From IMG/VR virus record IMGVR_UViG_3300028887_000082: a stretch of 64,000 bases of DNA. The stretch is one strand, 5' to 3'. Position 1 is the first letter of the stretch. Every line of letters starts with the position of its first letter. Origin of the DNA: a virus (lineage: Duplodnaviria; Heunggongvirae; Uroviricota; Caudoviricetes). The translations under genes and the position numbers were made by a program. A model generated the notes under the pieces. That model was not told the DNA's origin. It ran no database searches and saw only the letters and a list, made by a program, of their open reading frames with translations. Positions 2,823-45,622 of this stretch are shown here, one piece after another.

Positions 2823-3129
2823 CAAAGATTGTTGTGGTGTTGCAGAACTTTAAAAGGAACAACACAGGTGTAGAGGGAAACTTTAATGGGTAATTTTTTT
2901 TACCAGCTAACCTTCAGAGACCTCACCAAGGATGATGCTTCATCATGGAGGGCACTCCAAGATGACAAAAAGATAGTTACAGTGAGAGTCTTATTGAGAA
3001 CTGTTCGACCCAGGAGGAGTGATGTTTTAGAGCATGTTTGACTGTACGGGGATAAACGGTGGCGACCGGTGAGTTTTTCTGGGCACTTCTCAGAACAAAA
3101 ACAAAGAAAATTAACAAAACAGTCTTTAA

Positions 3130-3204
3130 GGGTGTTTAGCGCAGCTGGTTCAGAGCATCTCGTTTACACCGAGAAGGTCGGGGGTTCGAATCCCTCATCA
3201 CCCA
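3130..3204 (+). tRNA. tRNA-Val (anticodon TAC)
   Basis: Acceptor GGGTGTT/ATCACCC (one mismatch); D-arm TAGCGCAGCTGGTTCAGAGC; anticodon stem TCTCG/CGAGA with loop TTTACAC; T-arm GGGGG-TTCGAAT-CCCTC. Confidence 0.75.
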
Positions 3205-3342
3205 CAAAGAGATACTTGAAGAAGCTACGGGTGTAAGATACTAGTAAAGATTACACATAGGGGCCTACCATATTGTAGTTTATGTGTTCTAAAACATCAA
3301 GTAACAACATAGAGGACTTCGAATTAATCTATGGCTCTTAAT

Positions 3343-3414
3343 GCCGATGTAGCTCAGTGGCAGAGCAGGGGTTTTGTAAACCTCAGGTCGAGATCTCGGT
3401 ATTCTCCATCGGCT
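3343..3414 (+). tRNA. tRNA-Thr (anticodon TGT) with non-canonical T-loop
   Basis: Acceptor GCCGATG/CATCGGC perfect; D-arm TAGCTCAGTGGCAGAGC; anticodon stem GGGGT/ACCTC with loop TTTGTAA; T-arm GAGAT-CTCGGTA-TTCTC (4 bp, unusual loop). Confidence 0.65.
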
Positions 3415-3472
3415 CAAAATTATTGAACTTGAACTTTCATAAATACTTTATAAGGATTATAAAAGTTCAACT

Positions 3473-4066
3473 ATGACAAACTGGGAAGATAGAAAAGATA
3501 CCCTGGTAGATTTGATACAGGTTCAGAAATTACCATATGAACAGATTGGTAGAATGTTCAATTGTTCAGGTAATAACATCAAGAAAGTTGCAAAAAAACT
3601 TGGTATTGAATTAGTCCAGAAAAGAAAGATAAATGAAAGTGAAACTTTCAATAAAGGAAAAGGTAATAAGGGTATCTGTTTAAACTGTGGATGTGAATAT
3701 AACATTTACAGGTCTTCAAAAGGAAAGTTCTGCTCAAACAAATGTCAGGGAGAGTATGAATATAAAGAGTTCATTGAAAAATGGAAAAAGGGTGAAGAAT
3801 CTGGATTGACAGGAGAATATGGAATTTCTCGTCACATAAGGAGATACCTTTTTAATAAGTACAAATGTAGTTGTCAAATTTGTGGATGGAGTGAAGTAAA
3901 TCCATTTACTGGTAATGTTCCTTTGGAAATTCATCATATAGATGGCAATTACGTAAATAATAAAGAGGAAAATTTACAACTCCTTTGTCCAAATCATCAC
4001 TCACTGACTGAAACCTTTAAGAACCATAATAAAAATGGTAGAAAAGGTAGAAGGAAGTACAATTGA
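3473..4066 (+). CDS. HNH homing-type endonuclease (free-standing, inside tRNA array)
   Basis: C-terminal HNH motif ...EIHHIDGNYVNNKEENLQLLCPNHH; Cys-rich Zn-binding stretches CLNCGCEY...CSNKCQ and CQICGW; N-terminal HTH-like segment. Confidence 0.85.
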   Translation: MTNWEDRKDTLVDLIQVQKLPYEQIGRMFNCSGNNIKKVAKKLGIELVQKRKINESETFNKGKGNKGICLNCGCEYNIYRSSKGKFCSNKCQGEYEYKEFIEKWKKGEESGLTGEYGISRHIRRYLFNKYKCSCQICGWSEVNPFTGNVPLEIHHIDGNYVNNKEENLQLLCPNHHSLTETFKNHNKNGRKGRRKYN

Positions 4067-4072
4067 TAATTT

Positions 4073-4227
4073 GCCCCAGTGGCTCAATGGTAGAGCAACG
4101 CACTTGTATAGATGGCGAAATTCCATTTTAAAAACTATGACTACATCAAAAGGCTCATAGGAGTGAGGGTTCGATTCCCTTATGTAGTCCAATGCGTAGG
4201 TTGCTGGTTCGATTCCGGCCTGGGGCT
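4073..4227 (+). tRNA. interrupted tRNA gene: 5' half + ~90-nt insertion in anticodon loop + 3' half; insertion contains a nested T-arm/acceptor minihelix
   Basis: Outer acceptor GCCCCAG...CTGGGGC perfect 7 bp; D-arm TGGCTCAATGGTAGAGC; anticodon stem ACGCA (4098-4102) pairs with TGCGT (4193-4197); T-arm GCTGG-TTCGATT-CCGGC; insert 4103-4192 begins CTTGTAT (TGT-like); nested ACTACAT...GAGGG-TTCGATT-CCCTT-ATGTAGT-CCA at 4140-4191. Confidence 0.6.
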
Positions 4228-4285
4228 CAAGAAAAAGGATTTTGGCCTGTTAGTTAAAATCCATATAAAATAAAAAGTCAAATTT

Positions 4286-4906
4286 ATGTCAAAATTAATG
4301 AAACCAGAAGAGAGGGATCAGCAGATCAAGGATTTGATGATTACCATTAGAAGGAACACACAGGGTTCCAAATGTATTGAGATCTTTGAAAATCTTTTGA
4401 ATGAGGTTGAGGACAAAGAGTTTGTTGATACTGTTATAGCAGACACTCACAAATTCATCTCTGAGTTCTCAAGACTATGTAAGGATGTGGACAATATGAA
4501 GAATCTGGATTATATCTCCAGAATCCTCACACATGAGTTCATACTTCCCCACAAGTATTTCCGTAAGTCACAGAATATGGCGAAGGTATACTTGCTGATG
4601 TATGACAGACTTGTGAAGATATATTCACATCCTGTATATGATGTTGAGAAAGGTATCATCCTTTCCAATGTCAACTTCCTGGGTACAATTCACCACAAGG
4701 AAGACCTCACTGCAAATGATGTGATTGCAGTGTTCAAGTATTTCGGTGACCTTTCAGGACTTTCCGTTGACCAGGTAAAGGAAAAGAAGGAAGAAGCCAG
4801 GATGGTCATCTTACTCTACAATTATCTGCCTGCCATAGTGAAGGCACTTATTCAGACCAAGAGGAGAAGCTTGAATCTTGACAAGAACTCCAAGAAGTTT
4901 GAATAA
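4286..4906 (+). CDS. hypothetical protein (206 aa)
   Basis: Long + strand ORF between the tRNA block and tRNA-Ala. Confidence 0.6.
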   Translation: MSKLMKPEERDQQIKDLMITIRRNTQGSKCIEIFENLLNEVEDKEFVDTVIADTHKFISEFSRLCKDVDNMKNLDYISRILTHEFILPHKYFRKSQNMAKVYLLMYDRLVKIYSHPVYDVEKGIILSNVNFLGTIHHKEDLTANDVIAVFKYFGDLSGLSVDQVKEKKEEARMVILLYNYLPAIVKALIQTKRRSLNLDKNSKKFE

Positions 4907-4934
4907 ATAACAGAACTAACAGGCTGGAATCTTT

Positions 4935-5001
4935 GGGGGATTAGCTCAGCTGACTAGAGCACCTGATTTGCACTCAGGAGGTCATGGGTTTGAATCCCAT
5001 A
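4935..5001 (+). tRNA. tRNA-Ala (anticodon TGC), CCA encoded
   Basis: Acceptor GGGGGAT/ATCCTCC (G-U at 4:69); D-arm TAGCTCAGCTGACTAGAGC; anticodon stem CCTGA/TCAGG with loop TTTGCAC; T-arm ATGGG-TTTGAAT-CCCAT; ends ACCA. Confidence 0.8.
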
Positions 5002-5043
5002 TCCTCCACCAAAAAAGGACAATTATTTGCTGGGATACTGTGA

Positions 5044-6132
5044 GTGTCCCTTTTTTATTCAATGAAAAGAATATTTATATTCATTGTATTTTTATTCCTT
5101 GGTATGACATCACTGCAATCGCAGAATGTCGTATCATCTACTGTTGAGTTTTTATTCAACACAGATGAGTTTGTACAGAATGAGAAATATGACAATTTCA
5201 TAAACACAATTGTACCTTATATCAACAGCAACAAGGATAATATTGAGAGTATCCTGTTGGTGGGATCTGCATCCCCAGAAGGAAACAAGGAATGGAATGA
5301 CTACCTTGCTGTCACCAGGGCCGAAAAGGTACACTCATATTTTATGGACAGTATTCCAAGACAGAAGGTCAATGTCATCAATGACTATGACCTATTCCTG
5401 GAAAAGACAGGTTATGATGAGAAGAACTGGAAAAGGTTGAGGGCAACTTATATTGAAATCCAACTCAAAAAAGCACCTGAAACCATAACCCTGTTTGACA
5501 CCATATATATAAAGGAGATGGATACAATCTACCAGTGCTGTGGCACTGATACTGTATATATCAAACAGGAACCGGAAAGGATACCTCTTCTTGCAGTAAA
5601 GACAAATCTCCTTTCTGATGTTCTCATCACCCCCAGTATTCAAGCTGAACTCTACACACATCTCTGGGGACTCTCACTTGAATTTGACTACACATTCCCC
5701 TGGTATCACAATGATGATGTATATTGGTATTACCAGATCCTCAATGGTACTGTTGGAATAAGGAAGTACTTGAACAATGAGTACTATGGTCATTACTTTG
5801 GAATATATGGAAACACTTTCACATATGACATCTGTTTTGATGCAGATAATGGATACCAGGGTGAGGGTAATGGAATCAGTATAGGTTATGGATATGTGTT
5901 CAGGAGTAAGAAACATCCCAAACTGAAGTTTGAACCTTATGTCAGGTTGGGTTATCTGTATTCAAGATTTGACACATATCATGCCTCTAATCCCTGGGAT
6001 GGAAAGTATTACTACAACTGGCATAAGAAGGCCAGTGAATTTACTCCCAGGAGACTTGAACTTAATTATTTCGGACCTACTGCAATAGGTTTCAATATAA
6101 CATACGACTTGATATGGTTAAGAAAGTATTAG
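5044..6132 (+). CDS. secreted outer-membrane beta-barrel-like protein (DUF3575-like, OmpA-like segment)
   Basis: Signal peptide MKRIFIFIVFLFLGMTSLQSQ; segment AVKTNLLSDVLITPSIQAE resembles the DUF3575 core found beside Bacteroidales fimbrillin genes; GSASPEGNKEWNDYLAVTRAEKV is OmpA-C-like; aromatic C-terminus. Confidence 0.5.
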   Translation: MSLFYSMKRIFIFIVFLFLGMTSLQSQNVVSSTVEFLFNTDEFVQNEKYDNFINTIVPYINSNKDNIESILLVGSASPEGNKEWNDYLAVTRAEKVHSYFMDSIPRQKVNVINDYDLFLEKTGYDEKNWKRLRATYIEIQLKKAPETITLFDTIYIKEMDTIYQCCGTDTVYIKQEPERIPLLAVKTNLLSDVLITPSIQAELYTHLWGLSLEFDYTFPWYHNDDVYWYYQILNGTVGIRKYLNNEYYGHYFGIYGNTFTYDICFDADNGYQGEGNGISIGYGYVFRSKKHPKLKFEPYVRLGYLYSRFDTYHASNPWDGKYYYNWHKKASEFTPRRLELNYFGPTAIGFNITYDLIWLRKY

Positions 6133-7220: not shown

Positions 7221-8405
7221 ATGAAAAAGATTTTATTCACATTATTAACCATATTAATGGTAATCGTATCATGTGCAAAAATAGATATTGTACCTGATAC
7301 ATATAATTCTCGTAATGAGAATGTGGAGATTGTTTTCGGTGCCCATGCAGGCAAGGGTTTGATGACAAGAGCAGTCATTAATGGTGATACTTTACCAGAT
7401 GGATCAGAGTTTGGTGTTTATTCATACTATGCAGCAGGAACCAATCATTTGTTGATTGACAATGGTCACTATGCAGTAAACAAGGATACAGCCAGGGCTA
7501 CTGGTGGTGAAAAGTATTATTGGCCAAAGTCAGATAACAATAATGTCACAAAGGATAGTATTGACTTCTTGGCAATTTATCCATATAGTACAACTGATTA
7601 TTCTCGTTCAGGAAACACTGTTACTATTACACTTAATGCATCAACAACAGATAGTACTTCTACAAAGGATGTTCTTTATGCAATAGCTGATAATCAGTAT
7701 CATCAGACAGTTGGAACTTATAACAATACTACACCAAATAAGTATTATGTTCCATTGACATTTAAGCATGCATTGACATTGGTTGAGTTCCAGGGTAAAC
7801 ATGCTGGAGCAACAAATAACATTGATACTATAACTGTTACAGAGATTGCTTTCTTGAATAGTGATGGTACTGCATATGCTATTTACACTGGTGGTTCAAT
7901 ATCATTTGATATATCTAAAATAACTGCAACCACAAAACCTGATACAACTTTTACAGGTGGTACAACAAACAATACTTTAAACTTTGCTAATAATTGTGGT
8001 CTTACATCATCAAAATACACAACAATATCAAAGGCAATAATGGTTCCTCAGGCTGTACCTAATAAGGTTCGCATAACTTATAATATAACCATTAAGAATA
8101 CTAATGGTGAAAAAGTGGAGTTCACTGGTCGTCAGGTAGTAAAAGAAATTAATACCGGTAGTGATATGACAAATAATACTCCTAGAAATTATGTATCTAA
8201 CTGGTATTCTGGTAAGCATTATGTTTACAGGTATTATATAACTGCTGAAGCTATTGAGTTTACTGTAACAGTTGATGACTGGGATCTTCCTGATGGTTGG
8301 CAGATTTGGGATCATGATGTAGCATCATATGTTGACCGTTTTTTCGAGAAGGCTTCAACAATCATGGGGAACTGTATAGAGGTGCAGAACCACATAATGG
8401 CGTAA
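7221..8405 (+). CDS. fimbrillin-like (type V pilus Mfa/FimA-like) lipoprotein; reading continues in -1 frame to 8980 across a T6 tract
   Basis: Lipobox MKKILFTLLTILMVIVSC-AK; candidate Arg maturation site LMTR|A near residue 50; T/S/N-rich beta-rich body; the -1 frame is open from 8336 to 8980 with no start codon before 8669. Confidence 0.5.
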   Translation: MKKILFTLLTILMVIVSCAKIDIVPDTYNSRNENVEIVFGAHAGKGLMTRAVINGDTLPDGSEFGVYSYYAAGTNHLLIDNGHYAVNKDTARATGGEKYYWPKSDNNNVTKDSIDFLAIYPYSTTDYSRSGNTVTITLNASTTDSTSTKDVLYAIADNQYHQTVGTYNNTTPNKYYVPLTFKHALTLVEFQGKHAGATNNIDTITVTEIAFLNSDGTAYAIYTGGSISFDISKITATTKPDTTFTGGTTNNTLNFANNCGLTSSKYTTISKAIMVPQAVPNKVRITYNITIKNTNGEKVEFTGRQVVKEINTGSDMTNNTPRNYVSNWYSGKHYVYRYYITAEAIEFTVTVDDWDLPDGWQIWDHDVASYVDRFFEKASTIMGNCIEVQNHIMA

Positions 8406-32350: not shown

Positions 32351-32593
32351 ATGATGTACATACTTGCAGGAAGAAGTTATCAATTATATGGCATCTTCTC
32401 CACAAAGGAGAAACTCAATGAGGCCATCGCAGTCGTAAGGAAACATGACCCTTACACACATCTCTATTGGCAGGAGGTAGAGGTTGACAACTTTGACACA
32501 ACCATTGCCTCATTCTTTACAATGCATCCGGAAAAACTTATAGAAATAGAAAAAGACACAGATTATGAAATTTCTGATACAGACAGTAAATAA
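32351..32593 (+). CDS. hypothetical small protein (80 aa)
   Basis: + strand ORF. Confidence 0.4.
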   Translation: MMYILAGRSYQLYGIFSTKEKLNEAIAVVRKHDPYTHLYWQEVEVDNFDTTIASFFTMHPEKLIEIEKDTDYEISDTDSK

Positions 32594-33290
32594 ACAGATT
32601 ACATATGACTTCATTTTTGAGTTGACCATATGTAAGGAATACTTTGATTGGATTGGAAGGGATTTCAAACTCAAGAAACATGAAGGTCTGAACTTTGATG
32701 ATATAAAGAACCCGGACCAGTATGTCCCTGTTGGTTCTGTTGAGTTTGTATCAGAGTATTTGAGGAAGTTTTACCCCCAGGCAGAGAAAGCACTCATACC
32801 TATCAATGTTCCAGAACAGTTGTTCCCATTTGCCGGCAGAACCATTGCCAACATAACCAAACCGGAGGATATGAATGGGTTTGATTGTCTTGTGTACAGA
32901 AAGTCTTTGGATACAATAAAGGATCCCAACAATGGATGGTGGGGATTTCCTGAATATGAATGGTGTAAGGGTTACCAGGTTTCCACTCCAATTGATAACA
33001 TTATTTCTGAATGGAGAGTATTTGTATTCAATGATGTAATTGTGGATGCAAAAAACTACAGGGGTGACTTTTTCGTATGTCCGGATGAAGAAACAGTTTC
33101 CAATATGGTGAAAGCATATAAGAATTCACCCAGAGCATATACGCTTGATGTAGCAGTCACAAGTGAAGGTAAAACTGTAGTGATTGAGTGTCACCGGTTC
33201 TTTTCATGTGGTCTGTATGGATTTTGTGAGCATGATAAATATCCTGTAATGCTTTCACAGGAATGGTTTGAAATGAAAAATATGAGATAA
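32565..33290 (+). CDS. ATP-grasp fold enzyme (amidoligase-like)
   Basis: EWRVFVFNDVIVDAKNY and LDVAVTSEGKTVVIECHRF resemble ATP-grasp motifs (ExxRxF; DxxxxxxGxxxVIExN). Confidence 0.45.
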   Translation: MKFLIQTVNKQITYDFIFELTICKEYFDWIGRDFKLKKHEGLNFDDIKNPDQYVPVGSVEFVSEYLRKFYPQAEKALIPINVPEQLFPFAGRTIANITKPEDMNGFDCLVYRKSLDTIKDPNNGWWGFPEYEWCKGYQVSTPIDNIISEWRVFVFNDVIVDAKNYRGDFFVCPDEETVSNMVKAYKNSPRAYTLDVAVTSEGKTVVIECHRFFSCGLYGFCEHDKYPVMLSQEWFEMKNMR

Positions 33291-33292
33291 TT

Positions 33293-33595
33293 ATGAACAC
33301 TAAAAAAAGAAATGTATTCTTTGATTTGTTTTACAAGAAATACAAATCCATTGATAAAATGAACTACATCAAAAATGTTATGGACTCTTGTGAGACAAAA
33401 GTACAATTGGATTCAGCGTATTCATGGGGAATTGAAATCATTTGGAAAACATGTAGTGCAATGAGAGAAATACTTGATAATGAATATGGTAGTATCTTTG
33501 CATTTCCTATTGAAGATAAAATAATGGATATGTGTAAAGAAATATCAGATGAAATTACCAATCATTATAATAACATACTAAAAAGAAAGATATAA
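33293..33595 (+). CDS. hypothetical protein (100 aa)
   Basis: + strand ORF. Confidence 0.4.
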   Translation: MNTKKRNVFFDLFYKKYKSIDKMNYIKNVMDSCETKVQLDSAYSWGIEIIWKTCSAMREILDNEYGSIFAFPIEDKIMDMCKEISDEITNHYNNILKRKI

Positions 33596-33604
33596 AAGAA
33601 TGAT

Positions 33605-33901
33605 ATGATAGGTATTTTTATTTTCCCGGCAAAACCAAACAAGGATTACCTGTTCTACAAAGAACCCAGAAAAGTTCTTGAAATGAGTGATGATGAAATC
33701 ATATCATCAAAAAATTCATCAAGGGGTATTTTCTATAACATACATTATGACAATGAATGGGAAGGACTCAGTGATGCAGAAATTGTTGATAAGTGGAATG
33801 AAAAAGCGATAAACCTCCAAATTCAGATTGGTAACAGAAAATCCGGACTTGGTTATACATCAGTAGATAAGACTAAATTTATTAGAATAATAAGGAAATG
33901 A
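33605..33901 (+). CDS. hypothetical protein (98 aa)
   Basis: + strand ORF. Confidence 0.4.
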   Translation: MIGIFIFPAKPNKDYLFYKEPRKVLEMSDDEIISSKNSSRGIFYNIHYDNEWEGLSDAEIVDKWNEKAINLQIQIGNRKSGLGYTSVDKTKFIRIIRK

Positions 33902-34575
33902 AACACTATGACAGTATTCCCAGACTCCAGGATGATGGAACACTGAAAGGAGAGATGGTCGCCGGGTACAACAAACTTGACGGTCAGAACTTCTGTGTCA
34001 CATATAATTGTAGAAAGAAAACCTGGGGACCTTATGGATCCAGGACTGTCACTGTTGATGAGAACTCTGAACAGTTTGGGGACACGGTTAGATTCTTCAA
34101 CAACTCCGGTTACAAGGAGATACTTGGAAATATCATCAAGGAGTATTCAGGTAAGGGAGATGTGTTCAATGGTGTTGAAGAAGTCACATTCTTCTTTGAG
34201 TGGTATGGGTGGAACTCATTCGCTGGCAAACACAAGGAAGGTGACAAGATGCACCTGGCACTCATTGATGTGTTCCTGAAGAAGAGAGGTTATATGGAAC
34301 CCAAATCATATGAGATGTGTTTCAGAAATTGCGGAATTGAACTTCCTGATCTCATATATTCCGGACCACTCAATGCAGACATTATAGAAAAGGTTCAGAA
34401 CAATGACTGGACAGACCCGGATTGTTGGAATTCCAAAGTACATGAGGGTGTTGTCTTCAAAAGAACAACACTCCTGAAAGGACAGAGGAGACCATCAGTC
34501 AAGGTGAAGACCAAATGGTGGTTGGACACTCTCCACTCACTTTATACAGAAGAGGAATGTAAGAAACTTGAGTGA
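33898..34575 (+). CDS. ATP-dependent RNA ligase-like nucleotidyltransferase (Rnl family)
   Basis: Motif I AGYNKLDGQN (KxDG, lysine adenylylation site); motif IV EGVVFK; motif V KVKTK; ~225 aa. Confidence 0.6.
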   Translation: MKHYDSIPRLQDDGTLKGEMVAGYNKLDGQNFCVTYNCRKKTWGPYGSRTVTVDENSEQFGDTVRFFNNSGYKEILGNIIKEYSGKGDVFNGVEEVTFFFEWYGWNSFAGKHKEGDKMHLALIDVFLKKRGYMEPKSYEMCFRNCGIELPDLIYSGPLNADIIEKVQNNDWTDPDCWNSKVHEGVVFKRTTLLKGQRRPSVKVKTKWWLDTLHSLYTEEECKKLE

Positions 34576-35428
34576 TATGGAAGGATACAGTATAAATCCA
34601 TTAGACTATCTTAACCAGGCACTTAATTATGCACATCGTTGGAAACTTGATGTCAATCTTGAAAATCCGACCACAATACAGGACAAACTGTTCTGGTTGA
34701 ATTTCTATGACCAGGACATCAGAAAGTCCAGATGTGCAGATAAACTGTTAGTCAGGGAGTATGCAAAAGAAAAACTTGGTTTTGACATCAACATACCAAT
34801 ATTAAAGGTGTATGACAGTGTTGATGACATAAACCTGGATGAACTCCCAGATAAGTTTGTCATAAAGTGTAATCATGGAAGTTCAATGAACATTGTTGTC
34901 AAAGACAAGAGTTCATTTGACTTTGAAAAAGCAAAGGACAAACTCAGGAAATGGATGAGTATTGATTATGCACTATATAATCATTATGAGTTCCATTACC
35001 ATGACATACAACACAAGATTCTGATTGAGGAATACAAGGAAGATCTCAAGACCAATGAACTCAGGGATTACAAGTTCAGCTGTTTCAATGGTGTTCCCAA
35101 AGTTATGTGTGCAATCACAAACCTGTTCAAACACAATGAGACAACCAACTATTATGATATGGATTTCAATCCATTGACTGATATGTCCCTGATATATCAT
35201 CCTGCAAACTACAATGTCCAGATTGATAAACCCAAAGGGTTTGAAAAGATGATAGAGTATGCCACAAAACTCTCCCAGGACTTTAAGTATGTCAGGGTAG
35301 ATTTCTTCAGTATCAATGGTGATGTGTATCTGAGTGAGATGACATTCACACCACATGCCATAATCTGGTTGAGATTCAATAACCCCAAATATGACCTTGA
35401 ACTGGGTAATATGCTTAATATAAAGTAA
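34568..35428 (+). CDS. ATP-grasp enzyme (TupA-like)
   Basis: KFVIKCNHGSS...; ILIEEYKED; YVRVDFFSINGDVYLSEMTFTP. Confidence 0.5.
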   Translation: MSDMEGYSINPLDYLNQALNYAHRWKLDVNLENPTTIQDKLFWLNFYDQDIRKSRCADKLLVREYAKEKLGFDINIPILKVYDSVDDINLDELPDKFVIKCNHGSSMNIVVKDKSSFDFEKAKDKLRKWMSIDYALYNHYEFHYHDIQHKILIEEYKEDLKTNELRDYKFSCFNGVPKVMCAITNLFKHNETTNYYDMDFNPLTDMSLIYHPANYNVQIDKPKGFEKMIEYATKLSQDFKYVRVDFFSINGDVYLSEMTFTPHAIIWLRFNNPKYDLELGNMLNIK

Positions 35429-35429
35429 T

Positions 35430-35672
35430 ATGAATACAAGTTTCATTTATAAGGTGATATCTGAATCAGAAAGGTGGCAGGTAAGACGCAAGAGAAAGAT
35501 CGAGAGGATGAAATTTCTGATGAAAGTTCTTGAAGACAGAAACCTTAACCTCCCTGAAAGATTTTATGGTATGCTGGCAAGGTGGGAGTCAGAATATAGA
35601 AGAGAATGTGAGGAATATCAGCAACTACTTAACATAACCAAGAATGAAAAGAAAGAAGAAAGAATACAGTAA
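35430..35672 (+). CDS. hypothetical protein (80 aa)
   Basis: + strand ORF. Confidence 0.4.
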   Translation: MNTSFIYKVISESERWQVRRKRKIERMKFLMKVLEDRNLNLPERFYGMLARWESEYRRECEEYQQLLNITKNEKKEERIQ

Positions 35673-35913
35673 CATCTGTGATATGAATGGGGAACTCATC
35701 CCATATGGTGTCCCTATTGACTTCACATGGTGGGCATACTATGGGACAGAAGTTGAACTCCACCTGGTTGCGAAGATACGAAAGCGAAAATCCGGTGACA
35801 TCTTTGAGTTCATAAAGGATGAACATGGAAGAGATTGTTTCTTCACTCACAGACTGACATCACTCAATTGGGAACCGGCAGATTTGGAAATATTAAATGA
35901 AAATGAGTTATGA
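35644..35913 (+). CDS. hypothetical protein (89 aa)
   Basis: + strand ORF. Confidence 0.4.
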   Translation: MKRKKKEYSNICDMNGELIPYGVPIDFTWWAYYGTEVELHLVAKIRKRKSGDIFEFIKDEHGRDCFFTHRLTSLNWEPADLEILNENEL

Positions 35914-36185
35914 ACAACATCTTTAATTATATCTTTAATTTTGGACCGGTAATTGTCTCCCTCATCCTCCTTATCTGGATGAGATGTTGTTGTGTATTCA
36001 CAGAGAACATCAAGTTCCCGACAAGAGGACATATTGTACTGATTACACTGTTGTCAGCAATCCCCATTATAGGAATTATAACAGTGGCGGGTATGATTGC
36101 ATTCTATATTGGATTCAGAGTGACAGGTGATTTACGTCTTAAAAGTAATAGATTTACTAAATTTTGGTTTGACATAGATGAATGA
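35910..36185 (+). CDS. small membrane protein (91 aa)
   Basis: Two hydrophobic helices. Confidence 0.4.
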   Translation: MNNIFNYIFNFGPVIVSLILLIWMRCCCVFTENIKFPTRGHIVLITLLSAIPIIGIITVAGMIAFYIGFRVTGDLRLKSNRFTKFWFDIDE

Positions 36186-36705
36186 TTTTAAGAAAATAGT
36201 TTTCCTGGATATAGATGGTGTATTGGCATCCATCCAATTCTTGTGTGATCATCCCAAGTCATCAGGAATTGATCCGGAAAAGTGTAAACTCCTCAACACC
36301 CTTTCTGAAATAGGTGCTGAAATTGTCATATCCTCTTCCTGGGGACACGACAATGGCAGAACTGAAAAGACATTGAGACAATGTGGGTTGACCCTTCCAA
36401 TCATAGGTTACACCCAACATTTTTCCCAGGACTGGATATGTAGGGGTAATGAAATTGAGAAGTGGTTGACAGAGATGTATGGTGGTATGGGTACCAAGTT
36501 TGGTTACGATTGCGATACGGGTGAACCATACTACAGGGAACACTTTAGTGATAATGATGTTGATTATGAGTATGTTATCTTTGATGATGACACTGATTTC
36601 CTGCTTGGACAAAAAGACAACTTCATCAAAATAGATGAAAAGACAGGTCTGACAGAAGAGGACATCAACAAAGCAATTAAGATACTTACAAGAAGTGGCG
36701 AATAA
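36178..36705 (+). CDS. HAD-superfamily phosphatase (polynucleotide 3'-phosphatase-like)
   Basis: Motif I VFLDIDGVLAS (DxDGxL); motif II IVISSSW; lies 1.6 kb downstream of the RNA ligase. Confidence 0.55.
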   Translation: MNDFKKIVFLDIDGVLASIQFLCDHPKSSGIDPEKCKLLNTLSEIGAEIVISSSWGHDNGRTEKTLRQCGLTLPIIGYTQHFSQDWICRGNEIEKWLTEMYGGMGTKFGYDCDTGEPYYREHFSDNDVDYEYVIFDDDTDFLLGQKDNFIKIDEKTGLTEEDINKAIKILTRSGE

Positions 36706-36726
36706 ATTTCGCCATTTTTTTTTTGT
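36697..36726 (+). terminator. rho-independent terminator (GGCGAA-ATAAAT-TTCGCC-TTTTTTTTTT)
   Basis: Perfect 6-bp GC stem plus T10, overlapping the gene's stop. Confidence 0.75.
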
Positions 36727-36752
36727 TATTTCAAAAAAATATATTATCTTTG
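36722..36752 (+). promoter_or_regulatory. Bacteroidota-type promoter (TTTG, 19 nt, TATCTTTG)
   Basis: TTTTGTTATTTCAAAAAAATATATTATCTTTGTAATAG upstream of 36775. Confidence 0.55.
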
Positions 36753-36774
36753 TAATAGATATAAACAAACAGAT

Positions 36775-37380
36775 ATGAAACTGATTGAATTAGGTACCCA
36801 GTATCTCACCCGTAAGGATGAGGAAGAGGCTGCCAGACAGGCTGCCCAGAAGATTATGGAAGAGATTGAAACCCTGTGTCCTCACAAGGTTGGTGAGATA
36901 ATCAAGTGGATTGGATCCAAGTGCAAGAAGGTTGGTCCGGTACATGATTCATATTGGACAACCGGTGACAAGGTTGAGAAGAAAGCTATGCTTTCCAAGG
37001 TTCAACCTGACATCTTCAAAACTCCTGATGGTGAGGTCAAGGTCAATTTCATATATACTTTCCGACCCATCACATCCAAGGGCAACCTGAGTCATATACA
37101 TACTTCACCTGAAGAAGAATTTGAATGGACAGGGGAAATGTATGAGAACCCCAACAAGAAGGATTACACATCTGACTTTGAGCAGTTCAAGAATGAACAC
37201 CCGGGTTGGGATAAGTATGGTATCACTGATTCAATGGCATATGACCTGATGGATTGGTATGATATAAAGCACAACATCACACTTGAACTGGATGAAGATG
37301 GTGAGGCAATATGTGCAAGTGATGAGGGACATGAGTTCGCAAGATATGTCTGGACTGAGATTCTCGGTCTTGTATGGTAA
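36775..37380 (+). CDS. hypothetical protein (201 aa)
   Basis: + strand ORF with its own promoter. Confidence 0.5.
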   Translation: MKLIELGTQYLTRKDEEEAARQAAQKIMEEIETLCPHKVGEIIKWIGSKCKKVGPVHDSYWTTGDKVEKKAMLSKVQPDIFKTPDGEVKVNFIYTFRPITSKGNLSHIHTSPEEEFEWTGEMYENPNKKDYTSDFEQFKNEHPGWDKYGITDSMAYDLMDWYDIKHNITLELDEDGEAICASDEGHEFARYVWTEILGLVW

Positions 37381-37399
37381 ACAATTAAACACTAAGGAT

Positions 37400-37732
37400 A
37401 TGAAGAAGATTTTATTTTTACTTTGTCTTATGTTGTGTCTGGTCTCTTGCGGGCCATTAGGCAGATGTGACTATAAGAGTACAATCACATACAAACTGGA
37501 TGGAGTATCCCATACAGAATCAATATTGATGGAAGACATACAAGAGTATTCTGTTCCATCTTATTCCTGTAGTCCAAAGGGGTTACAGATAATTGCTTCT
37601 AATGGTCCATACATCACCTACCGTAAAAAGATATACACAGGAAATCTTCCCATTGAGGTTGAAAAATTTGAATACAAGACATTGAGAACATACAAGGTTT
37701 CCGCATGGAGTGGAAAGGAAATTAAGAAATAA
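37400..37732 (+). CDS. small lipoprotein (~110 aa)
   Basis: Lipobox MKKILFLLCLMLCLVSC-GP at the internal ATG of ORF 37283..37732. Confidence 0.5.
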   Translation: MKKILFLLCLMLCLVSCGPLGRCDYKSTITYKLDGVSHTESILMEDIQEYSVPSYSCSPKGLQIIASNGPYITYRKKIYTGNLPIEVEKFEYKTLRTYKVSAWSGKEIKK

Positions 37733-38027
37733 TCATATGTTTGGAGATACAATAGATGATATGATGGTCATTATGGACAATGGTGTAAAGTCAAACCAGT
37801 CTGTCTATTCCGATCGCCTTTGGCAGATGAACCCCAAGAAGTATGACTCCTGTTGTATGAAGGTGTGGGGTAATGAAGGTCAGACTTTCTATGGCAGAGA
37901 GTTCAATGACATTGAGAAGTTCCTGAAACTCTATACAGAAAACAATGACCTGATACTGTGTAGAGTACTCCAGACAGAGAATGTCTCCAATGGTTACCCG
38001 CTGTGGAGATTTGATTACAAGATATAA
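37710..38027 (+). CDS. hypothetical protein (true start probably MFGDTIDD, ~37737)
   Basis: + strand ORF. Confidence 0.4.
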   Translation: MERKLRNNHMFGDTIDDMMVIMDNGVKSNQSVYSDRLWQMNPKKYDSCCMKVWGNEGQTFYGREFNDIEKFLKLYTENNDLILCRVLQTENVSNGYPLWRFDYKI

Positions 38028-38286
38028 AAAAGTTATGGCAGCATCAAAATTACCTAAAATCAATGTAGTTCGCATCACAAAGAACTATGTAACATTCAAG
38101 AGGGAAGACTTTGAAGCATTGAAGGCTGCATATCTTGATTTGTATAATGAACACAAGAATGACCCCAATGTCGGTAAGTCTGTCAAGGATCAATGGCTTG
38201 GACACTATCTGATGTTGTCTGAGATTTGTGGTAAATGGTCATTTCCCACTTTAGAAACAAAACCGGAAACAAATAAAACAAAATAA
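37981..38286 (+). CDS. hypothetical protein (101 aa)
   Basis: + strand ORF. Confidence 0.4.
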   Translation: MSPMVTRCGDLITRYKKVMAASKLPKINVVRITKNYVTFKREDFEALKAAYLDLYNEHKNDPNVGKSVKDQWLGHYLMLSEICGKWSFPTLETKPETNKTK

Positions 38287-38288
38287 TT

Positions 38289-38849
38289 ATGGCTTATAAA
38301 GGAGACCCCGAAAAGGATTTGATGGTCCAGTTTCTTGACCAGAAAACAATGTCATTCCAGACATTAATAGATGGTGTTGAGAATTTCAAACACAACTGTG
38401 AGTTAAACCATATTGACCCCAGGAATGTTCCATTTGTCATAGAGACAGATGGTCTCAAATATGCTGTACCCTGGTATGGTATCAGTCTTGGTATAGGAAA
38501 GGGTACAAGAGTTGCTGTGGAGTTTTCCAAGGATAAAAAGTGCATGCCCATTGTACCTGATGTAAGACCTGAGGGTGAGGGTGAGTACTGGAGTTCAAGA
38601 GGTCCAGGTTACCCGGACATATCCGGTTTCGTAAAGAGCAAGCAGGCCGGTGAGAGAATTGATGCTATGGTTGACAGGGTACTTGGTACCAAGAATCACA
38701 AGACCTGGCTTGATTACAGGGAGTTTGAACCCACCTGGATCCAATACAAGTTCCACAAGGATGAGTTTGATATGGAGAAACTGGACAAACTGACCAAGGA
38801 TAATGATTATATCATCACTGAAGAAATCATAAGGAGGTGTAAAAGATGA
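38289..38849 (+). CDS. hypothetical protein (186 aa)
   Basis: + strand ORF. Confidence 0.5.
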   Translation: MAYKGDPEKDLMVQFLDQKTMSFQTLIDGVENFKHNCELNHIDPRNVPFVIETDGLKYAVPWYGISLGIGKGTRVAVEFSKDKKCMPIVPDVRPEGEGEYWSSRGPGYPDISGFVKSKQAGERIDAMVDRVLGTKNHKTWLDYREFEPTWIQYKFHKDEFDMEKLDKLTKDNDYIITEEIIRRCKR

Positions 38850-39064
38850 AAGGAAAGGCAAGACTGATACGAAAGGAAGATGGCAGATATTATGTCTATG
38901 CAAAGGACTTCTGGTTTCAGAGGTGGAAGCCATTGACATACAGTGAGAATAGTGATGTACAGATTTCATTCAAGGACTTTGCTGAATTTGGGGAGGTAAC
39001 CCAGATTGAAACTTTTGATGTCATCACATTATCTTATGACAAGTTTTCAGGAATGAGAGGTTGA
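38846..39064 (+). CDS. hypothetical small protein (72 aa)
   Basis: + strand ORF, ATGA overlap. Confidence 0.4.
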   Translation: MKGKARLIRKEDGRYYVYAKDFWFQRWKPLTYSENSDVQISFKDFAEFGEVTQIETFDVITLSYDKFSGMRG

Positions 39065-39087
39065 CTATGTAACATAAAGAAATAACT

Positions 39088-39723
39088 ATGAGAAAGTTCA
39101 AAGAGGGTGATGTAATCAAGTATGATGGTATAGGTCACAATGTATATATCATCAAGGAGGTTCATAGATCCCATTATGTAAACAGTTTGGGTAACTGTAT
39201 GGATGGTGCTTACACAGATGCTAATTTCGTTTTCTGTGAAAGATGTAAACCGAACACTCGGATCGGAGAACTTGAAAAACTGATAAAAGAAAAGGAATCT
39301 GAATTGGGAAAACTCCGCCAGGAATTGCATGAACTGGAAGAGAACATCAATTACGGCAACATCAATTTCTTAATAAAGTGTTCAAATGATTCATCCATAC
39401 TTGCAAAGAATACAGATGAAGGTGACATTCTGATTGACTCTTATGTGGACAACAATGGTAAGGTTCATGCCCGTTCTGGAAAAGAAAGAAGGGAATATGC
39501 TTCTGACATCTTCCTGGAATATCTTGGAACAGGAAACAAATACACTATCTGTACTTGCAGTGATGAGGCATTGAATGCTATTGGAAACCTATTGATGGAA
39601 TACAATGTCATACCCAACAATATAGAGGTACTTATGTTCTCTAAGGAACATCCGGAAGGTAAGGTCAGTCACTACACAAGAGAAGGATACCTGACCAACT
39701 GGGAGATTGGTTTCCTGGGTTAA
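39088..39723 (+). CDS. hypothetical protein (211 aa) with short coiled coil
   Basis: ELEKLIKEKESELGKLRQELHELEENI segment. Confidence 0.5.
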   Translation: MRKFKEGDVIKYDGIGHNVYIIKEVHRSHYVNSLGNCMDGAYTDANFVFCERCKPNTRIGELEKLIKEKESELGKLRQELHELEENINYGNINFLIKCSNDSSILAKNTDEGDILIDSYVDNNGKVHARSGKERREYASDIFLEYLGTGNKYTICTCSDEALNAIGNLLMEYNVIPNNIEVLMFSKEHPEGKVSHYTREGYLTNWEIGFLG

Positions 39724-39734
39724 AAAATACAACT

Positions 39735-40058
39735 ATGGTAGCATACAAGACAAGTAAAGACTATAAACACCTCATAGAGTTACTCAACAAAGGTGTTGAG
39801 GTGGTATGTTTCTACACTTATGACTGGAATATGCTCAGACCTGGAGAGAAACAGGAAGACCATGAACCAATGATGGTAACTGATGTATGTACTGCAAAAC
39901 TGATGTATAAGGACAGTAAATATGAGCAGTATGTCATCTCGTGTAGAGGATCCCAGTTCATAAGTTACTGGGTACATGATTTCCCTTACACATACACATT
40001 TGAGGAATTGCTTAAAGCAAGAGATATAGAATATATTGAACCCAATAACATCCAATGA
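39735..40058 (+). CDS. hypothetical protein (107 aa)
   Basis: + strand ORF. Confidence 0.45.
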   Translation: MVAYKTSKDYKHLIELLNKGVEVVCFYTYDWNMLRPGEKQEDHEPMMVTDVCTAKLMYKDSKYEQYVISCRGSQFISYWVHDFPYTYTFEELLKARDIEYIEPNNIQ

Positions 40059-40326
40059 TATGGAAGTAATTATAGATGGAGTAAAATATCTTCCTTCCAA
40101 TGTGGCACAACCCACAATGGAGGAACTGAAACAGTATCTGGAGGAACTGAAAGGTAAAAGTCATCTGGTTGCTGAACAGAAAGTCCCTGCTGAATATGTA
40201 AGAGATGATGACAGAGGCAGACCCTTTGACAAGGCATATGACAAGAGAGACTGTTATGAAAGGGGATATGACTATGCCTTATTGGAGATTTTATACTGGG
40301 TAAATGAACACACTAATAATAAGTAA
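40036..40326 (+). CDS. hypothetical protein (96 aa)
   Basis: + strand ORF. Confidence 0.4.
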   Translation: MNPITSNDMEVIIDGVKYLPSNVAQPTMEELKQYLEELKGKSHLVAEQKVPAEYVRDDDRGRPFDKAYDKRDCYERGYDYALLEILYWVNEHTNNK

Positions 40327-40711
40327 TATGGATAGAGAAAAATTATTGACAGTATTCAATTTGAGTAACAGTGCATTGATATTCACCTCATTTGGTGTAT
40401 TCAATATGGCAATAAACAACCACAAGGGTGCATTCATCCTGTTCGGTATTGCCCTGGTGGAACTCCTGGCGATGTCCATCACACTCGGAATTGGAGTGTT
40501 TGGAAAGAATAAATGAACATCCAATGGAAGGAAAGAAGTTAGGCAGGAAGGATAAGGAAATGCTCAAGTCGGCACTTGGTGCCATCCACTTCGCAGATGA
40601 CAGGTATTACTTTGATGGTGGAGAATACACATCCATTGATGTAATATCCTGACTGACTGATCTGGTCCTGAATAAATGACTTAATTTGGTATATTTATAT
40701 AAAGGTAAGAT

Positions 40712-40912
40712 ATGACAAAAGAAGAATTCAATAATGAGATATCAGTCGGTGATGTAGTAAGAATCATTGGAACTGACAAAGAGGAAGACTGTGTGGTTCA
40801 ACACAAGACAGAATATGCAGTCAATCTCCTGACTGTTGAATTAGGTCCGAGCGGTCTTCCGCGCGGAAGTTTCTATCGCACATATGATGAGATAATTTCA
40901 AAAGTAAAATAA
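40712..40912 (+). CDS. hypothetical small protein (66 aa)
   Basis: + strand ORF. Confidence 0.4.
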   Translation: MTKEEFNNEISVGDVVRIIGTDKEEDCVVQHKTEYAVNLLTVELGPSGLPRGSFYRTYDEIISKVK

Positions 40913-40913
40913 T

Positions 40914-41584: not shown

Positions 41585-41599
41585 TCAAAATAAACAACT

Positions 41600-42391: not shown

Positions 42392-42393
42392 GT

Positions 42394-43494: not shown

Positions 43495-43499
43495 ATCTT

Positions 43500-43817: not shown

Positions 43818-43819
43818 TT

Positions 43820-44259: not shown

Positions 44260-44285
44260 TAAGAGAAGAGACATTTAATCTTATT

Positions 44286-45605: not shown

Positions 45606-45622
45606 CTTTAAAAAATAACACT

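Follow-up and report, generated by a model that had tools for sequence, protein, structure and literature searches.

The interrupted tRNA gene and its intron

Positions 4073-4227 of the analyzed window, a 64,000-nt stretch of tailed phage DNA (Caudoviricetes; IMG/VR record IMGVR_UViG_3300028887_000082), hold a complete tRNA whose two anticodon-stem strands lie 90 nt apart. The gene is on the + strand, as are its parts, the second tRNA-Thr(UGU)-like gene, the HNH gene and the RNA ligase gene described below. It comprises an acceptor stem (GCCCCAG, 4073-4079, with CTGGGGC, 4220-4226) followed by the discriminator T4227, a D-arm (GCTC-AATGGTA-GAGC), an anticodon stem (ACGCA, 4098-4102, with TGCGT, 4193-4197) and a T-arm (GCTGG-TTCGATT-CCGGC). 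A first-pass annotation had described this anatomy together with a nested minihelix, and all of these elements were found in the sequence. The gene is absent from the default ARAGORN output and from the Rfam search at gathering score; ARAGORN in intron mode finds it under the label Gly(UCC), and the spliced sequence is recognized as tRNA-Thr(UGU) by default ARAGORN. We conclude that this is probably a functional tRNA-Thr(UGU) gene in which an 83-nt intron of the Lak-type mini-intron family of huge Bacteroidota phages separates position 36 from position 37.

The 90-nt spacing between the stem strands (4103-4192), earlier taken as a whole for the insertion, consists of the intron proper (4108-4190, 83 nt, between tRNA positions 36 and 37) and the seven bases of the anticodon loop. 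Exon 1 (4073-4107) includes the 5' strand of the acceptor stem, the D-arm, the 5' strand of the anticodon stem and loop bases C32-U36 (CTTGT), while exon 2 (4191-4227) includes A37 and A38, the 3' strand of the anticodon stem, the variable loop, the T-arm, the 3' strand of the acceptor stem and the discriminator T, with no encoded CCA. Removal of the 83 nt between CTTGT and AA, which are flanked by ACGCA and TGCGT, restores a 7-nt loop on a 5-bp stem, and the mature junction predicted under the family rule is ...ACGCACTTGT/AATGCGT... (CTTGT/AA, corresponding to Thr(UGU)).

Every element of the family descriptor is present in the intron. It starts with an unpaired ATA (4108-4110; family pattern NUA), continues with hairpin a (4111-4127; GATGG / CGAAATT / CCATT, as derived from folds) and an A-rich single-stranded linker TTAAAAACTAT (4128-4138; delimited by segment comparison across members), and then enters a tRNA-like domain. 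The acceptor-like stem c of this domain is formed by GACTACAT (4139-4146) and ATGTAGTC (4182-4189), the latter running straight on from the T-stem in the manner of a tRNA. Between these strands are insert b, CAAAAGGCTCATAGGAGT (4147-4164), which according to the folds is an 18-nt segment with a small hairpin and GG dinucleotides, and the intronic T-arm (4165-4181; GAGGG / TTCGATT / CCCTT). The domain thus combines an 8-bp stem c with a 5-bp T-stem and the loop TTCGATT, and insert b is probably a D-loop mimic that would make a tRNA elbow with the T-loop. The last intron base, C4190, is unpaired and resembles a discriminator, and the 3' splice site comes directly after it, 14 nt past the T-loop. 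The described structure was reproduced by folding the whole precursor and the intron alone (-19.5 kcal/mol).

The nested acceptor/T-arm unit (GAGGG-TTCGATT-CCCTT-ATGTAGT, 4165-4188) occurs as a single copy in the window, with 0 copies expected by chance. Its presence had been reported correctly, although its inner stem of 8 bp is longer than the ACTACAT strand originally assigned. The 'CCA' end ascribed to this minihelix was a misreading, as these letters correspond to the last paired base C4189, the invariant unpaired C4190 and A37 of exon 2 (4191).

A family of tRNA-like mini-introns

Short tRNA introns of Lak megaphages, one of which 'may itself encode a tRNA', were called 'enigmatic' by Devoto et al. 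(2019, Nat Microbiol, PMC6784885), and 'enigmatic' tRNA introns were noted again in jumbo phages (PMC13037316). Neither publication gives a consensus, a junction rule, a mechanism or an endonuclease link, and the isotypes came from tRNAscan in eukaryote mode. The Lak introns in Table S6 of PMC6784885 show the same plan as the intron in the window, which belongs to this Lak-type 'enigmatic' family and so is not a new kind of element; the suggestion of a novel intron is thereby superseded, since the family had already been published. The shared features include the anticodon-loop position, the size range (79-141 nt in Lak), the 5' NUA with hairpin and A-rich linker, the tRNA-like 3' domain, the terminal C, the lack of an Rfam match, and, at the level of the gene slot, the occurrence of intron-plus and intron-minus alleles. 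However, the Lak phages differ in lineage (26% GC compared with about 39% in the phage studied here, whose helicase has no close Lak match), and the Lak Thr intron cannot be aligned with that of the window beyond the common plan.

We assembled a family set of 15 distinct members, ranging from 65 to 141 nt, in seven isoacceptors, several of which are interrupted at once in some phages. Their common plan runs from three unpaired bases (usually NUA) through a hairpin and a linker (A-rich in most of them) to a tRNA-like domain and one unpaired C. In the domain, a coaxial stack ends in a 7-nt T-loop (TTCGAWW), and its 5' strand carries an insert containing GG. Thirteen of the 15 members have a stack of 13 bp, with partitions that compensate each other (9+4, 8+5, 7+6). 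All 15 members have A at intron position 3, a terminal unpaired C, GG within insert b (the 7-nt version included), and a 3' splice site exactly 14 nt after the intronic T-loop. In the smallest member (65 nt), 41 nt are a plain tRNA-like minihelix. These elements always reside within the anticodon loop, so placed that exactly seven loop bases return. The insertion point varies in the tRNA frame (34/35, 35/36 or 36/37) and is constant in the intron frame; recognition therefore appears to proceed via the intron rather than via the mature domain or a bulge-helix-bulge (BHB) motif.

The 5' module is conserved mostly in shape. Hairpin a is fully paired in every member and differs in sequence, with one version, ACAGAGTAAACTGT, base-for-base identical in Lak Phe, L003 Asn and L018/L033 Tyr. 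The linker measures 9-12 nt in all members, 13 of which have an AAA run in it. Runs of A are kept in the hairpin-a loops and linkers; in the members with a 9-nt loop they are replaced by pairing between loop and linker (GGTTT/AAACC in L025, TATCC/GGATA in L002), and the GGTTT/AAACC pairing was found also in the 6-nt hairpin-a loop of L033. A loop-a/linker pseudoknot was rejected as a family trait because it is seen in some members only, and the 5' NUA shows no conserved pairing with either the linker or stem c.

The structural descriptor gave 15 strict matches in 393 kb of related loci and none in reversed or shuffled decoys. As whole introns could not be brought into structural register with MAFFT, they were segmented by hand, with every segment string checked against the loci, and pairs were counted on the gapless sub-alignment of seven members whose 3' domain has no gaps once insert b is removed. 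In these members, pairing in the 13-bp stack reaches 100%, 12 of its 13 pairs show double changes, and sliding it out of register lowers the pairing to 31-52%. This covariation was reached by none of 500 shuffles, a comparison that overstates independence as the members are phylogenetically related. L003/L012 carry a homologous 92-nt intron in the same tRNA, and compensatory changes are seen in stem c and the T-stem as well as in the acceptor and anticodon stems. When the intron of the window was searched for by exact pattern in IMG/VR and the JGI metagenomes, only L003/L012 and L002 were retrieved; few members were found in this way because the family is too variable in sequence. Megablast of positions 3000-6000 against GenBank phages produced nothing related. 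The rules (5' NUA plus hairpin, 13-bp stack in most members, GG insert, terminal C, and the cut at 14 nt) make the family testable.

The 14-nt rule was fixed independently by intronless alleles of the Lak Thr gene (PMC6784885) and by the L016 gene, which minus 80 nt is exactly the L020 gene. Applied to the window, this rule gives the intron 4108-4190 and thus a tRNA-Thr(UGU) split at 36/37. The junction after C4190 is the only register common to the unambiguous members; in the window, shifting it by 1 nt (14 or 15) leaves the mature RNA unchanged. With this rule, Lys(CUU) and Asn(GUU) are correctly obtained in cases in which the ARAGORN isotype is wrong, and in loci with synteny to the window Thr(UGU) occupies the slot directly upstream of the homologue of ORF 4286. 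A blastn search of phages with the spliced tRNA gave a mixture of Asn, Thr and Met genes; neither this search nor global similarity to neighbouring phage tRNAs settled the isotype.

Removal of the intron

Since the exons and the intron covary, and since the L020 gene equals the L016 gene minus exactly 80 nt, we infer that the intron is removed at the RNA level. Bacteria and their phages are not known to have introns other than self-splicing ones. Members of this family are too small and too tRNA-like for group I or group II introns and have no archaeal BHB; the removal mechanism, whichever it is, is not one described for bacteria. A search of the literature for a solved mechanism of these introns found none since the family was flagged as enigmatic in 2019.

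Group I introns of cyanobacterial tRNA-Leu and tRNA-fMet, Azoarcus tRNA-Ile and Patescibacteria are similar in that they are mobile, associated with homing endonucleases and inserted in the anticodon loop of bacterial-type tRNAs. In contrast, they have roughly 200 nt or more compared with 65-141 nt here, and the mini-introns lack an Rfam Intron_gpI match and have a tRNA mimic as their body instead of a P3-P9 core. The end rule of group I (U before the 5' site and G as the last base) is not followed, as the intron ends in C in all 15 members and the 5' exons end in U, C or A. The archaeal and eukaryal introns, cut by EndA/Sen endonucleases and sealed by RtcB or Trl1 ligases, are likewise short, without ORFs and in or near the anticodon loop, and they share the endonuclease-plus-ligase logic of the model favoured below. 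In the BHB, exon-1 loop bases and the 3' end of the intron form a helix of 4 bp, with the splice sites in 3-nt bulges on either side of it. However, the 3' end of the mini-intron is locked in stem c (ATGTAGTC pairs with 4139-4146) and cannot pair with exon 1, and TTGT and GTCC are not complementary. The initial view that the insertion is too short for a group I intron and lies outside the reach of archaeal-type machinery therefore agrees with the absence of an Rfam intron or ribozyme match and of BHB pairing.

According to the model that we favour, the intron would be removed from the RNA, with the tRNA-like domain serving as a handle by which a T-loop-measuring endonuclease sets its cuts at the base of the stack. 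The candidate cutting enzymes include a tRNA end-processing enzyme of the RNase Z or RNase P type, or a dedicated one. The exons would then be sealed by an RNA ligase, the candidates being the phage's own Rnl-family ligase together with end-healing genes. The introns may further represent a third kind of tRNA intron, distinct from the group I and BHB types, which we consider less likely than not. In this reading, the 13-bp mimic would recruit a T-loop-measuring enzyme (host RNase Z/P or a dedicated phage nuclease) that cuts at a fixed distance, and a phage RNA ligase would rejoin the anticodon loop. If true, splicing in a bacterial system would here depend on proteins or on RNase P, and it would be coupled to a homing endonuclease specific for a tRNA gene.

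The window encodes an RNA ligase (PF09414; 33898-34575; Pfam 39.2 bits against a cut-off of 27), the candidate exon sealer, as well as HAD_SAK_2 (36178-36705), RlaP, Thg1-like and HD (47817-48536) genes. Strong matches to the ligase among 50,697 phage records were restricted to the 15 Lak genomes (59-60% identity); the ligase and the Thg1-like protein both have their best phage matches in Lak (57-60% identity), whereas the helicase used as a control does not. A PDB sequence search and NCBIfam did not assign the ligase to a subtype. Huge phages often carry RNA-repair genes for other purposes (counter-defence), and therefore the presence of such genes here is weak evidence for the model.

In a canonical tRNA, the stack has 12 bp and the RNase Z cut falls 13 nt past the T-loop; an ordinary RNase Z may therefore not fit the 13-bp stack and the cut at 14 nt predicted here. 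The expected site of an RNase P cut is the boundary of the linker with stem c and not the 5' splice site, and the model offers no explanation for the 5' cut; both points count against it. The embedded tRNA-like folds of mascRNA (MALAT1/MEN-beta) and of mitochondrial 'tRNA punctuation' offer a likeness, as their elbow and stack would direct precise cuts and an unpaired base, without CCA next to it, follows the stem. Unlike the mini-introns, these systems make ends and not spliced products, their stack has 12 bp, and the 5' splice site of the mini-introns lies 24-33 nt upstream of the expected RNase P cut. A combined stack of 13 bp, one more than in ordinary tRNAs, is found in tRNA-Sec (8/5 or 9/4), but the mini-introns have no long variable arm or UCA anticodon and most of them have no anticodon arm, and the resemblance is only geometric. 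The 13-bp stack may help to distinguish the intron from normal tRNAs.

A new small self-splicing or self-cleaving ribozyme, which we regard as rather unlikely, would use a three-way junction of the anticodon stem, hairpin a and the tRNA-like stack to join the splice sites and catalyse the cuts. A-minor contacts made by the A-rich loop and linker would hold the junction together, with ligation either autocatalytic or by RtcB/Rnl enzymes. Such a core would account for architecture and spacing conserved more strongly than a mere spacer needs, for the junction bases kept in all 15 members (A at position 3 and the terminal C), and for the A runs that are retained or replaced by loop-linker pairing; the phage end-healing genes would also suit 2',3'-cyclic phosphate and 5'-OH ends. 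However, the 65-nt member with its 41-nt minihelix leaves very little for a two-site catalytic core, and an elbow-forming tRNA mimic is a classic handle for proteins or RNase P and not a catalytic element. In addition, the Rfam intron and ribozyme families, among them the hammerhead, twister, pistol, hatchet, HDV-like and hairpin models, were unmatched at permissive thresholds (E up to 10 for 3900-4400, and E up to 1 for L002/L003). A resemblance of the L002 intron to the hairpin ribozyme (AGAAGTCAAC) was discarded, since it is absent from the sister introns and has no Rfam match.

It seems unlikely that the main product is the intronic tRNA-like RNA itself, freed by RNase P and RNase Z as mascRNA is from MALAT1, with splicing of the host tRNA secondary or inefficient; a function of such an RNA as a decoy for tRNA-targeting host defences or tRNA-binding enzymes is unlikely to the same degree. 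All elements of an RNase P/Z substrate are present (stack, T-loop, GG insert, unpaired base after the stem, no CCA following), although the stack has 13 bp instead of 12, and the domain of the Lak Thr intron is a full cloverleaf called a tRNA by Rfam. However, release of this RNA leaves unexplained both the conserved 5' module (NUA, hairpin a and linker) and the constant anticodon-loop location with exact restoration of seven bases, and the host exons remain under purifying selection.

The Thr locus, its HNH endonuclease and the gene's isotype

A free-standing HNH endonuclease gene of 197 aa (3473-4066; matches to PHROG HNH families with E-values as low as 4.6e-18 and, slightly under the cut-off, to Pfam HNH/HNH_3) lies immediately upstream of the interrupted tRNA. 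Its link with the tRNA, already noticed in the first-pass annotation, is real, with a spacer of 6 nt instead of 7, the ORF including its stop codon ending at 4066. In six of seven fetched lineages, the HNH homologue (66-87% identity) is followed after 2-7 nt by a tRNA-Thr(UGU) gene, so that with the window the gene abuts tRNA-Thr(UGU) in seven of eight lineages; in the exceptional lineage (L035-L039), the homologue abuts tRNA-Ala. The HNH-linked Thr(UGU) genes are intron-bearing in four lineages and atypical in three, while the intronless standard Thr alleles are free of HNH genes. Other combinations also exist, including HNH-linked Thr genes without an intron (L040-L045) and intron-bearing alleles without an HNH gene (L002, L016 and L003). 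Two intron types occur at the locus, type 1 in the window and type 2 in L029, L031 and L033, and sequence homology with L016, the nearest relative, is regained at 4199, within exon 2. The family introns and the HNH endonuclease abutting tRNA-Thr(UGU) come and go together at a hypervariable locus, and the upstream HNH gene is not incidental to it.

This organization resembles collaborative homing, known from F-CphI and the psbA intron of cyanophage S-PM2 and from SegB and the T5 endonucleases in phage tRNA clusters. Here too, a free-standing endonuclease gene lies beside an intron-containing gene, related phages carry intron-plus, intron-minus and endonuclease-minus alleles, a recombination boundary falls inside the target gene, and the HNH-linked alleles differ from the HNH-free ones. 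In contrast to the known examples, the intron is not of group I and the target is a tRNA gene. The intron in the DNA would split a tRNA-Thr sequence that the neighbouring HNH enzyme would otherwise cut, which would protect the carrier and let the intron spread with the endonuclease by gene conversion. The recurrent pairing suggests that the intron persists as a protection against a homing endonuclease that targets tRNA genes.

Comparison with related tRNA loci, which had been proposed as a check, showed that the same gene slot occurs with and without such introns. Intronless alleles were established for the slot and for the type 2 intron (L020 and L016); the exon sequence of the window itself turned up in no intronless copy. 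In the intron-bearing Thr genes, pairing in the scored cloverleaf pairs of the exons is complete (100%), 10 of the 19 pairs show double changes, and G1-C72 and C2-G71 are invariant. The alleles with and without an intron in one slot, and the covariation of both exons and intron, bear out the proposal of a small tRNA intron or mobile mini-element carrying a minihelix.

By the same evidence, it is very unlikely that the gene is dead, either hit by a mobile DNA insertion or kept only as a shield from the HNH endonuclease. A second gene (3343-3414; Rfam tRNA 50.3 bits, missed by ARAGORN) that resembles tRNA-Thr(UGU) and whose T-arm, GAGATCTCGGTATTCTC, is non-canonical is indeed present 660 nt upstream and could supply the function; it lies upstream of the HNH gene in the variable Thr/HNH locus and occurs also in L001, L016, L029 and L040. 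Moreover, we know of no machinery in bacteria for introns of this kind. However, the perfect cloverleaf of the intron-bearing alleles has survived many compensatory substitutions, the RNA structure of the intron covaries in its own right, the insertions are exact to the nucleotide in the L016/L020 pair, and one family has entered seven isoacceptors, several at once in some phages. The option of a disrupted gene, raised at the outset, is thus disfavoured.

The identity as tRNA-Gly(UCC), with an 83-nt intron after position 32 or 33 and the junction CT/TCCAATGCG, was reported by ARAGORN -i and agrees with the discriminator U and with the TCCAA that precedes the 3' anticodon-stem strand, but it is highly improbable, as the intron would not begin 3 nt before hairpin a and would end 10-11 nt, not 14, after the T-loop, the C3-G70 pair differs from the G3-C70 of bacterial tRNA-Gly (E. 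coli identity elements), the syntenic relatives hold Thr(UGU) in this slot, and ARAGORN miscalls other members as well (Ser for Asn, Gln for Lys, and Ala for Lak Gly and Thr). Wrong isotypes from ARAGORN and from tRNAscan in eukaryote mode (Gly for Thr, Tyr or Ser for Asn, Gln for Lys) affect inferences on codon usage and recoding in huge phages and are corrected by the family rules. Under the 14-nt rule, the published Lak 'Tyr GTA' reads as Asn GUU.

An interrupted tRNA-Thr(UGU) gene

The element at 4108-4190 (+) is an 83-nt tRNA-like mini-intron in a tRNA-Thr(UGU) gene and a new member of the Lak-type family, and its sequence context links it to a predicted HNH homing endonuclease gene. The first-pass annotation had described a split tRNA at this locus, and that anatomy is correct. 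Every part of one tRNA is present at 4073-4227 (+), including the acceptor stem (GCCCCAG/CTGGGGC), D-arm (GCTC-AATGGTA-GAGC), anticodon stem (ACGCA, 4098-4102; TGCGT, 4193-4197), variable loop (AGGTT), T-arm (GCTGG-TTCGATT-CCGGC) and discriminator (T4227), with the anticodon-stem strands 90 bases apart. Within the window's first 9.6 kb, default ARAGORN called 12 other tRNAs but missed this gene, and Rfam did not report it at the gathering score; it was reported by ARAGORN in intron mode. The nested T-arm/stem string occurs once in the window, with a chance expectation of zero. In the predicted minimum free energy fold of the full precursor, the cloverleaf is retained and the insert folds on its own.

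Since the anticodon shifts when the junction is slid, the junction must be set from unambiguous family members (cuts are marked here by slashes). In the Lak Thr gene it is fixed by intronless alleles (CTTGT/...C/AA; PMC6784885), and the gene of the related phage locus L016 minus exactly 80 nt equals the intronless gene of L020 (CTT/...C/GTAA). The Asn gene (class I body, G73, CGGA/UCCG stem) permits solely CTGT/...C/TAA, and the Phe and Lys junctions are similarly constrained. In these members the intron starts 3 nt before its first hairpin (hairpin a) and ends with an unpaired C, 14 nt past the intronic T-loop; in the others the junction is ambiguous by one base, the 14-nt position being included. 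This family rule places exon 1 at 4073-4107 (+), the intron at 4108-4190 (+) and exon 2 at 4191-4227 (+), so that the restored loop CTTGTAA gives tRNA-Thr(UGU) split at 36/37. Synteny is consistent with this identity, as the slot directly upstream of the homologue of ORF 4286-4906 holds a Thr(UGU) gene in every locus syntenic with the window: intronless in L018, L020 and L021, with a second intron type (type 2) in L002, L016, L017 and L029, and in an odd-T-arm form in L001. The Gly(UCC) reading by ARAGORN is unlikely, because its required junction violates both the start and the 14-nt end rules, and the program also misassigned other isotypes in the family, reading Asn as Ser, Lys as Gln, and both Lak Gly and Lak Thr as Ala. 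Under the 14-nt rule, the intron-bearing gene published as Lak 'tRNA-Tyr(GTA)' (Lak A1, A2 and B1; PMC6784885, Table S6) has the loop CTGTTAA; with its class I body and discriminator G, it is most likely a tRNA-Asn(GUU).

Anatomy and covariation of the intron family

Devoto et al. termed the tRNA introns of Lak megaphages "enigmatic", remarked that the Thr(TGT) intron "itself may encode a tRNA", and recorded intronless alleles and the lack of an Rfam match (PMC6784885). Later papers restated the existence of such introns and nothing more (PMC8346664; PMC13037316), and no explanation was found in the literature searched. The intron sequences in Table S6 of PMC6784885 have the same plan as the window insert, which therefore belongs to an already described class; the interest of that class lies in its still unexplained mechanism.

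Through the downstream ORF 4286-4906, relatives were reached in syntenic contigs of huge phages, 345-434 kb in length. A pattern scan identified a true homologue of the window gene, in which a 92-nt insert interrupts the same exons, in the viral contig L003 (99 kb) and in L012, its near twin. Where the window and L003 differ, the changes compensate each other, both in the intron (stem ACTACAT/ATGTAGT to ACTATAT/ATATAGT; T-stem GAGGG/CCCTT to AAAGG/CCTTT) and in the exons (acceptor ...CAG/CTG... to ...CAA/TTG...; anticodon stem ACGCA/TGCGT to GCGCA/TGCGC). Similar short inserts are carried by other tRNAs in L003 and further loci.

Fifteen distinct introns were divided into segments, and each segment string was confirmed in its locus. 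They are the window intron, three from L003, four from Lak A1 and A2, the Tyr introns of L018 and L033, the Lys intron of L025, and four type-2 Thr introns. All 15 share the order of three unpaired bases, hairpin a, linker, stem c, insert b, T-arm, 3' strand of stem c, and C. The first triplet is ATA (eight members), CTA (four), TTA (two) or TGA (one), its third base always being A. Hairpin a (3-5 bp) is fully paired in all members and differs in sequence; the linker (9-12 nt) is A-rich in most, 13 of the 15 containing an AAA run. Stem c has 7-9 bp, and insert b (7-49 nt) contains GG in every member and in Lak Thr forms a full D-arm plus anticodon arm. The intronic T-loop is TTCGAWW, or TCCGAAG in type 2, and the 3' strand of stem c is directly continuous with the T-stem, as in a tRNA, leaving a single unpaired C as the last base.

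The combined length of stem c and the T-stem is 13 bp in all but two of the 15 members (9+4, 8+5 or 7+6); those two have 12 bp with a one-base bulge. From the T-loop outward, each of the 13 positions is base-paired in all sequences and shows 3-5 pair types, apart from the invariant G-C closing the loop. In a tool-based count on an edited alignment of seven sequences (gapless 3' domain, insert b removed), pairing was 100% and 12 of the 13 pairs showed double changes, a level reached by none of 500 shuffles; pairing was 31-52% in slid registers. A descriptor built from the family features, with loop sequence unconstrained, matched strictly 15 times across 393 kb of non-redundant loci and never in reversed or shuffled decoys; these loci were picked for holding such genes, and the test thus excludes chance and gives no measure of frequency.

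On the features tested, the window intron belongs neither to group I nor to the bulge-helix-bulge introns. Other inserts were also observed. Two tRNA genes have anticodon-loop inserts of 208 and 236 nt (L003 c[7958-8250] and L022 2465-2774); in the L003 insert Rfam detected no group I intron at E up to 1, and the near-identical L012 lacks this insert. Two tRNA genes of L040 (86-207 and 1969-2090) each carry a similar 49-nt insert (AGTAAAGGTT.GGGAGTGTCTGCGCAGAAATCC..GTAAAGCCTTGAATT) without a T-loop, a different kind of short tRNA insert, and an unrelated insert of about 50 nt interrupts a tRNA at L003 6639-6760.

Probable removal from RNA and candidate enzymes

We infer that the window intron is removed from RNA on the basis of exon covariation, intron covariation, the exact insertions (L016/L020), and the presence of family introns in seven isoacceptors, several within one phage. 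Pairing is 100% across the 19 cloverleaf pairs scored in six distinct Thr genes that bear introns, with double changes in ten pairs and G1-C72/C2-G71 invariant. A dead gene is at odds with all of these observations and is unlikely.

The intronic domain combines a stack, a T-loop, a GG partner and an unpaired base without a following CCA, elements read by elbow-binding tRNA enzymes. The constant 14-nt distance despite variable stem partitions argues for an enzyme ruler measuring from the intronic T-loop. An endonuclease plus ligase pathway is favoured, although a new small ribozyme is a serious rival. In the endonuclease-ligase pathway, an enzyme resembling RNase Z, or a dedicated one, would make the 3' cut, and the 13-bp stack may set the introns apart from ordinary 12-bp tRNAs. 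RNase P would be expected to cut 24-33 nt downstream of the family 5' splice site, which precedes hairpin a by 3 nt.

Among the products encoded in the window are an RNA ligase (33898-34575), a phosphatase-type protein (HAD_SAK_2), RlaP, a Thg1-like protein and an HD protein. Among 50,697 phage records, strong matches to the ligase were found only in 15 Lak genomes (59-60% identity); the best phage match of the Thg1-like protein is likewise Lak (57%), and that of a helicase control from the window is not. This co-occurrence is suggestive of a link to intron processing but no proof, since there are other reasons for RNA-repair genes to occur in huge phages. A loose RNA-repair/tRNA-end cluster spans 32565-48536 (+), comprising R2K ATP-grasp, RNA ligase, TupA-like ATP-grasp, HAD_SAK_2, RlaP, Thg1-like and HD genes.

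The HNH gene and the Thr locus

Homologues of the HNH endonuclease ORF (3473-4066) were fetched from seven further lineages, and the gene abuts a tRNA-Thr(UGU) gene in seven of the eight, window included. In L029/L030 (87% identity), L031/L032 (81%) and L033/L034 (81%) it stops 6-7 nt short of a Thr(UGU) gene that carries a type-2 intron. It adjoins an odd-T-arm Thr(UGU) in L040 (76%), a variant Thr(UGU) in L041 (71%) and one with a long variable arm in L042-L045 (66%), while in L035-L039 (77%) it overlaps the start of tRNA-Ala, the Thr gene lying 250 nt downstream. No standard intronless Thr gene has an HNH neighbour in the loci compared.

Locus states in close relatives, read from blastn of the locus, are Val - Thr(intronless) - ORF in L020, Val - oddThr - Thr(type 2) - ORF in L016, Val - oddThr - HNH - Thr(type 2) - ORF in L029, and Val - oddThr - HNH - Thr(type 1, L003-like exons) - ORF in the window, oddThr being a Thr(UGU)-like gene with a non-canonical T-arm. 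Homology to L016, whose neighbouring protein is 98% identical to that of the window, resumes at 4199, within exon 2. This pattern is as expected for a free-standing homing endonuclease with a predicted tRNA-Thr gene target. HNH-linked Thr alleles would escape cutting, one route being an intron that splits the putative target site.

The window oddThr gene (3343-3414, +) has the T-arm GAGATCTCGGTATTCTC, without TTCGA; it scores 50.3 bits in Rfam and is missed by ARAGORN. It is kept in L001, L016, L029 and L040 with compensatory acceptor-stem changes, and is thus probably functional despite its odd T-loop. The long-arm Thr(UGU) of L042-L045 (3597-3680, 84 nt) is a further atypical allele linked to HNH; it lies 2 nt past the HNH homologue, and a normal Thr(UGU) comes after it.

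The long variable arm of the window tRNA-Pro(UGG) (2556-2638, +; 83 nt) gives it a class II shape, which is unusual for Pro, and the gene falls below the Rfam gathering score; the same form occurs in L020, and the L001 gene has 76 nt. An anticodon-CTA tRNA (amber suppressor; 'Pyl' in ARAGORN) is encoded by the related phages L025-L027 and L035-L040, which hints at TAG recoding in part of the phage group; none was found in the window. A phage ORF at 5044-6132 (+) with OmpA-like and DUF3575 domains, of Bacteroidota outer-membrane type, points to a Bacteroidota host.
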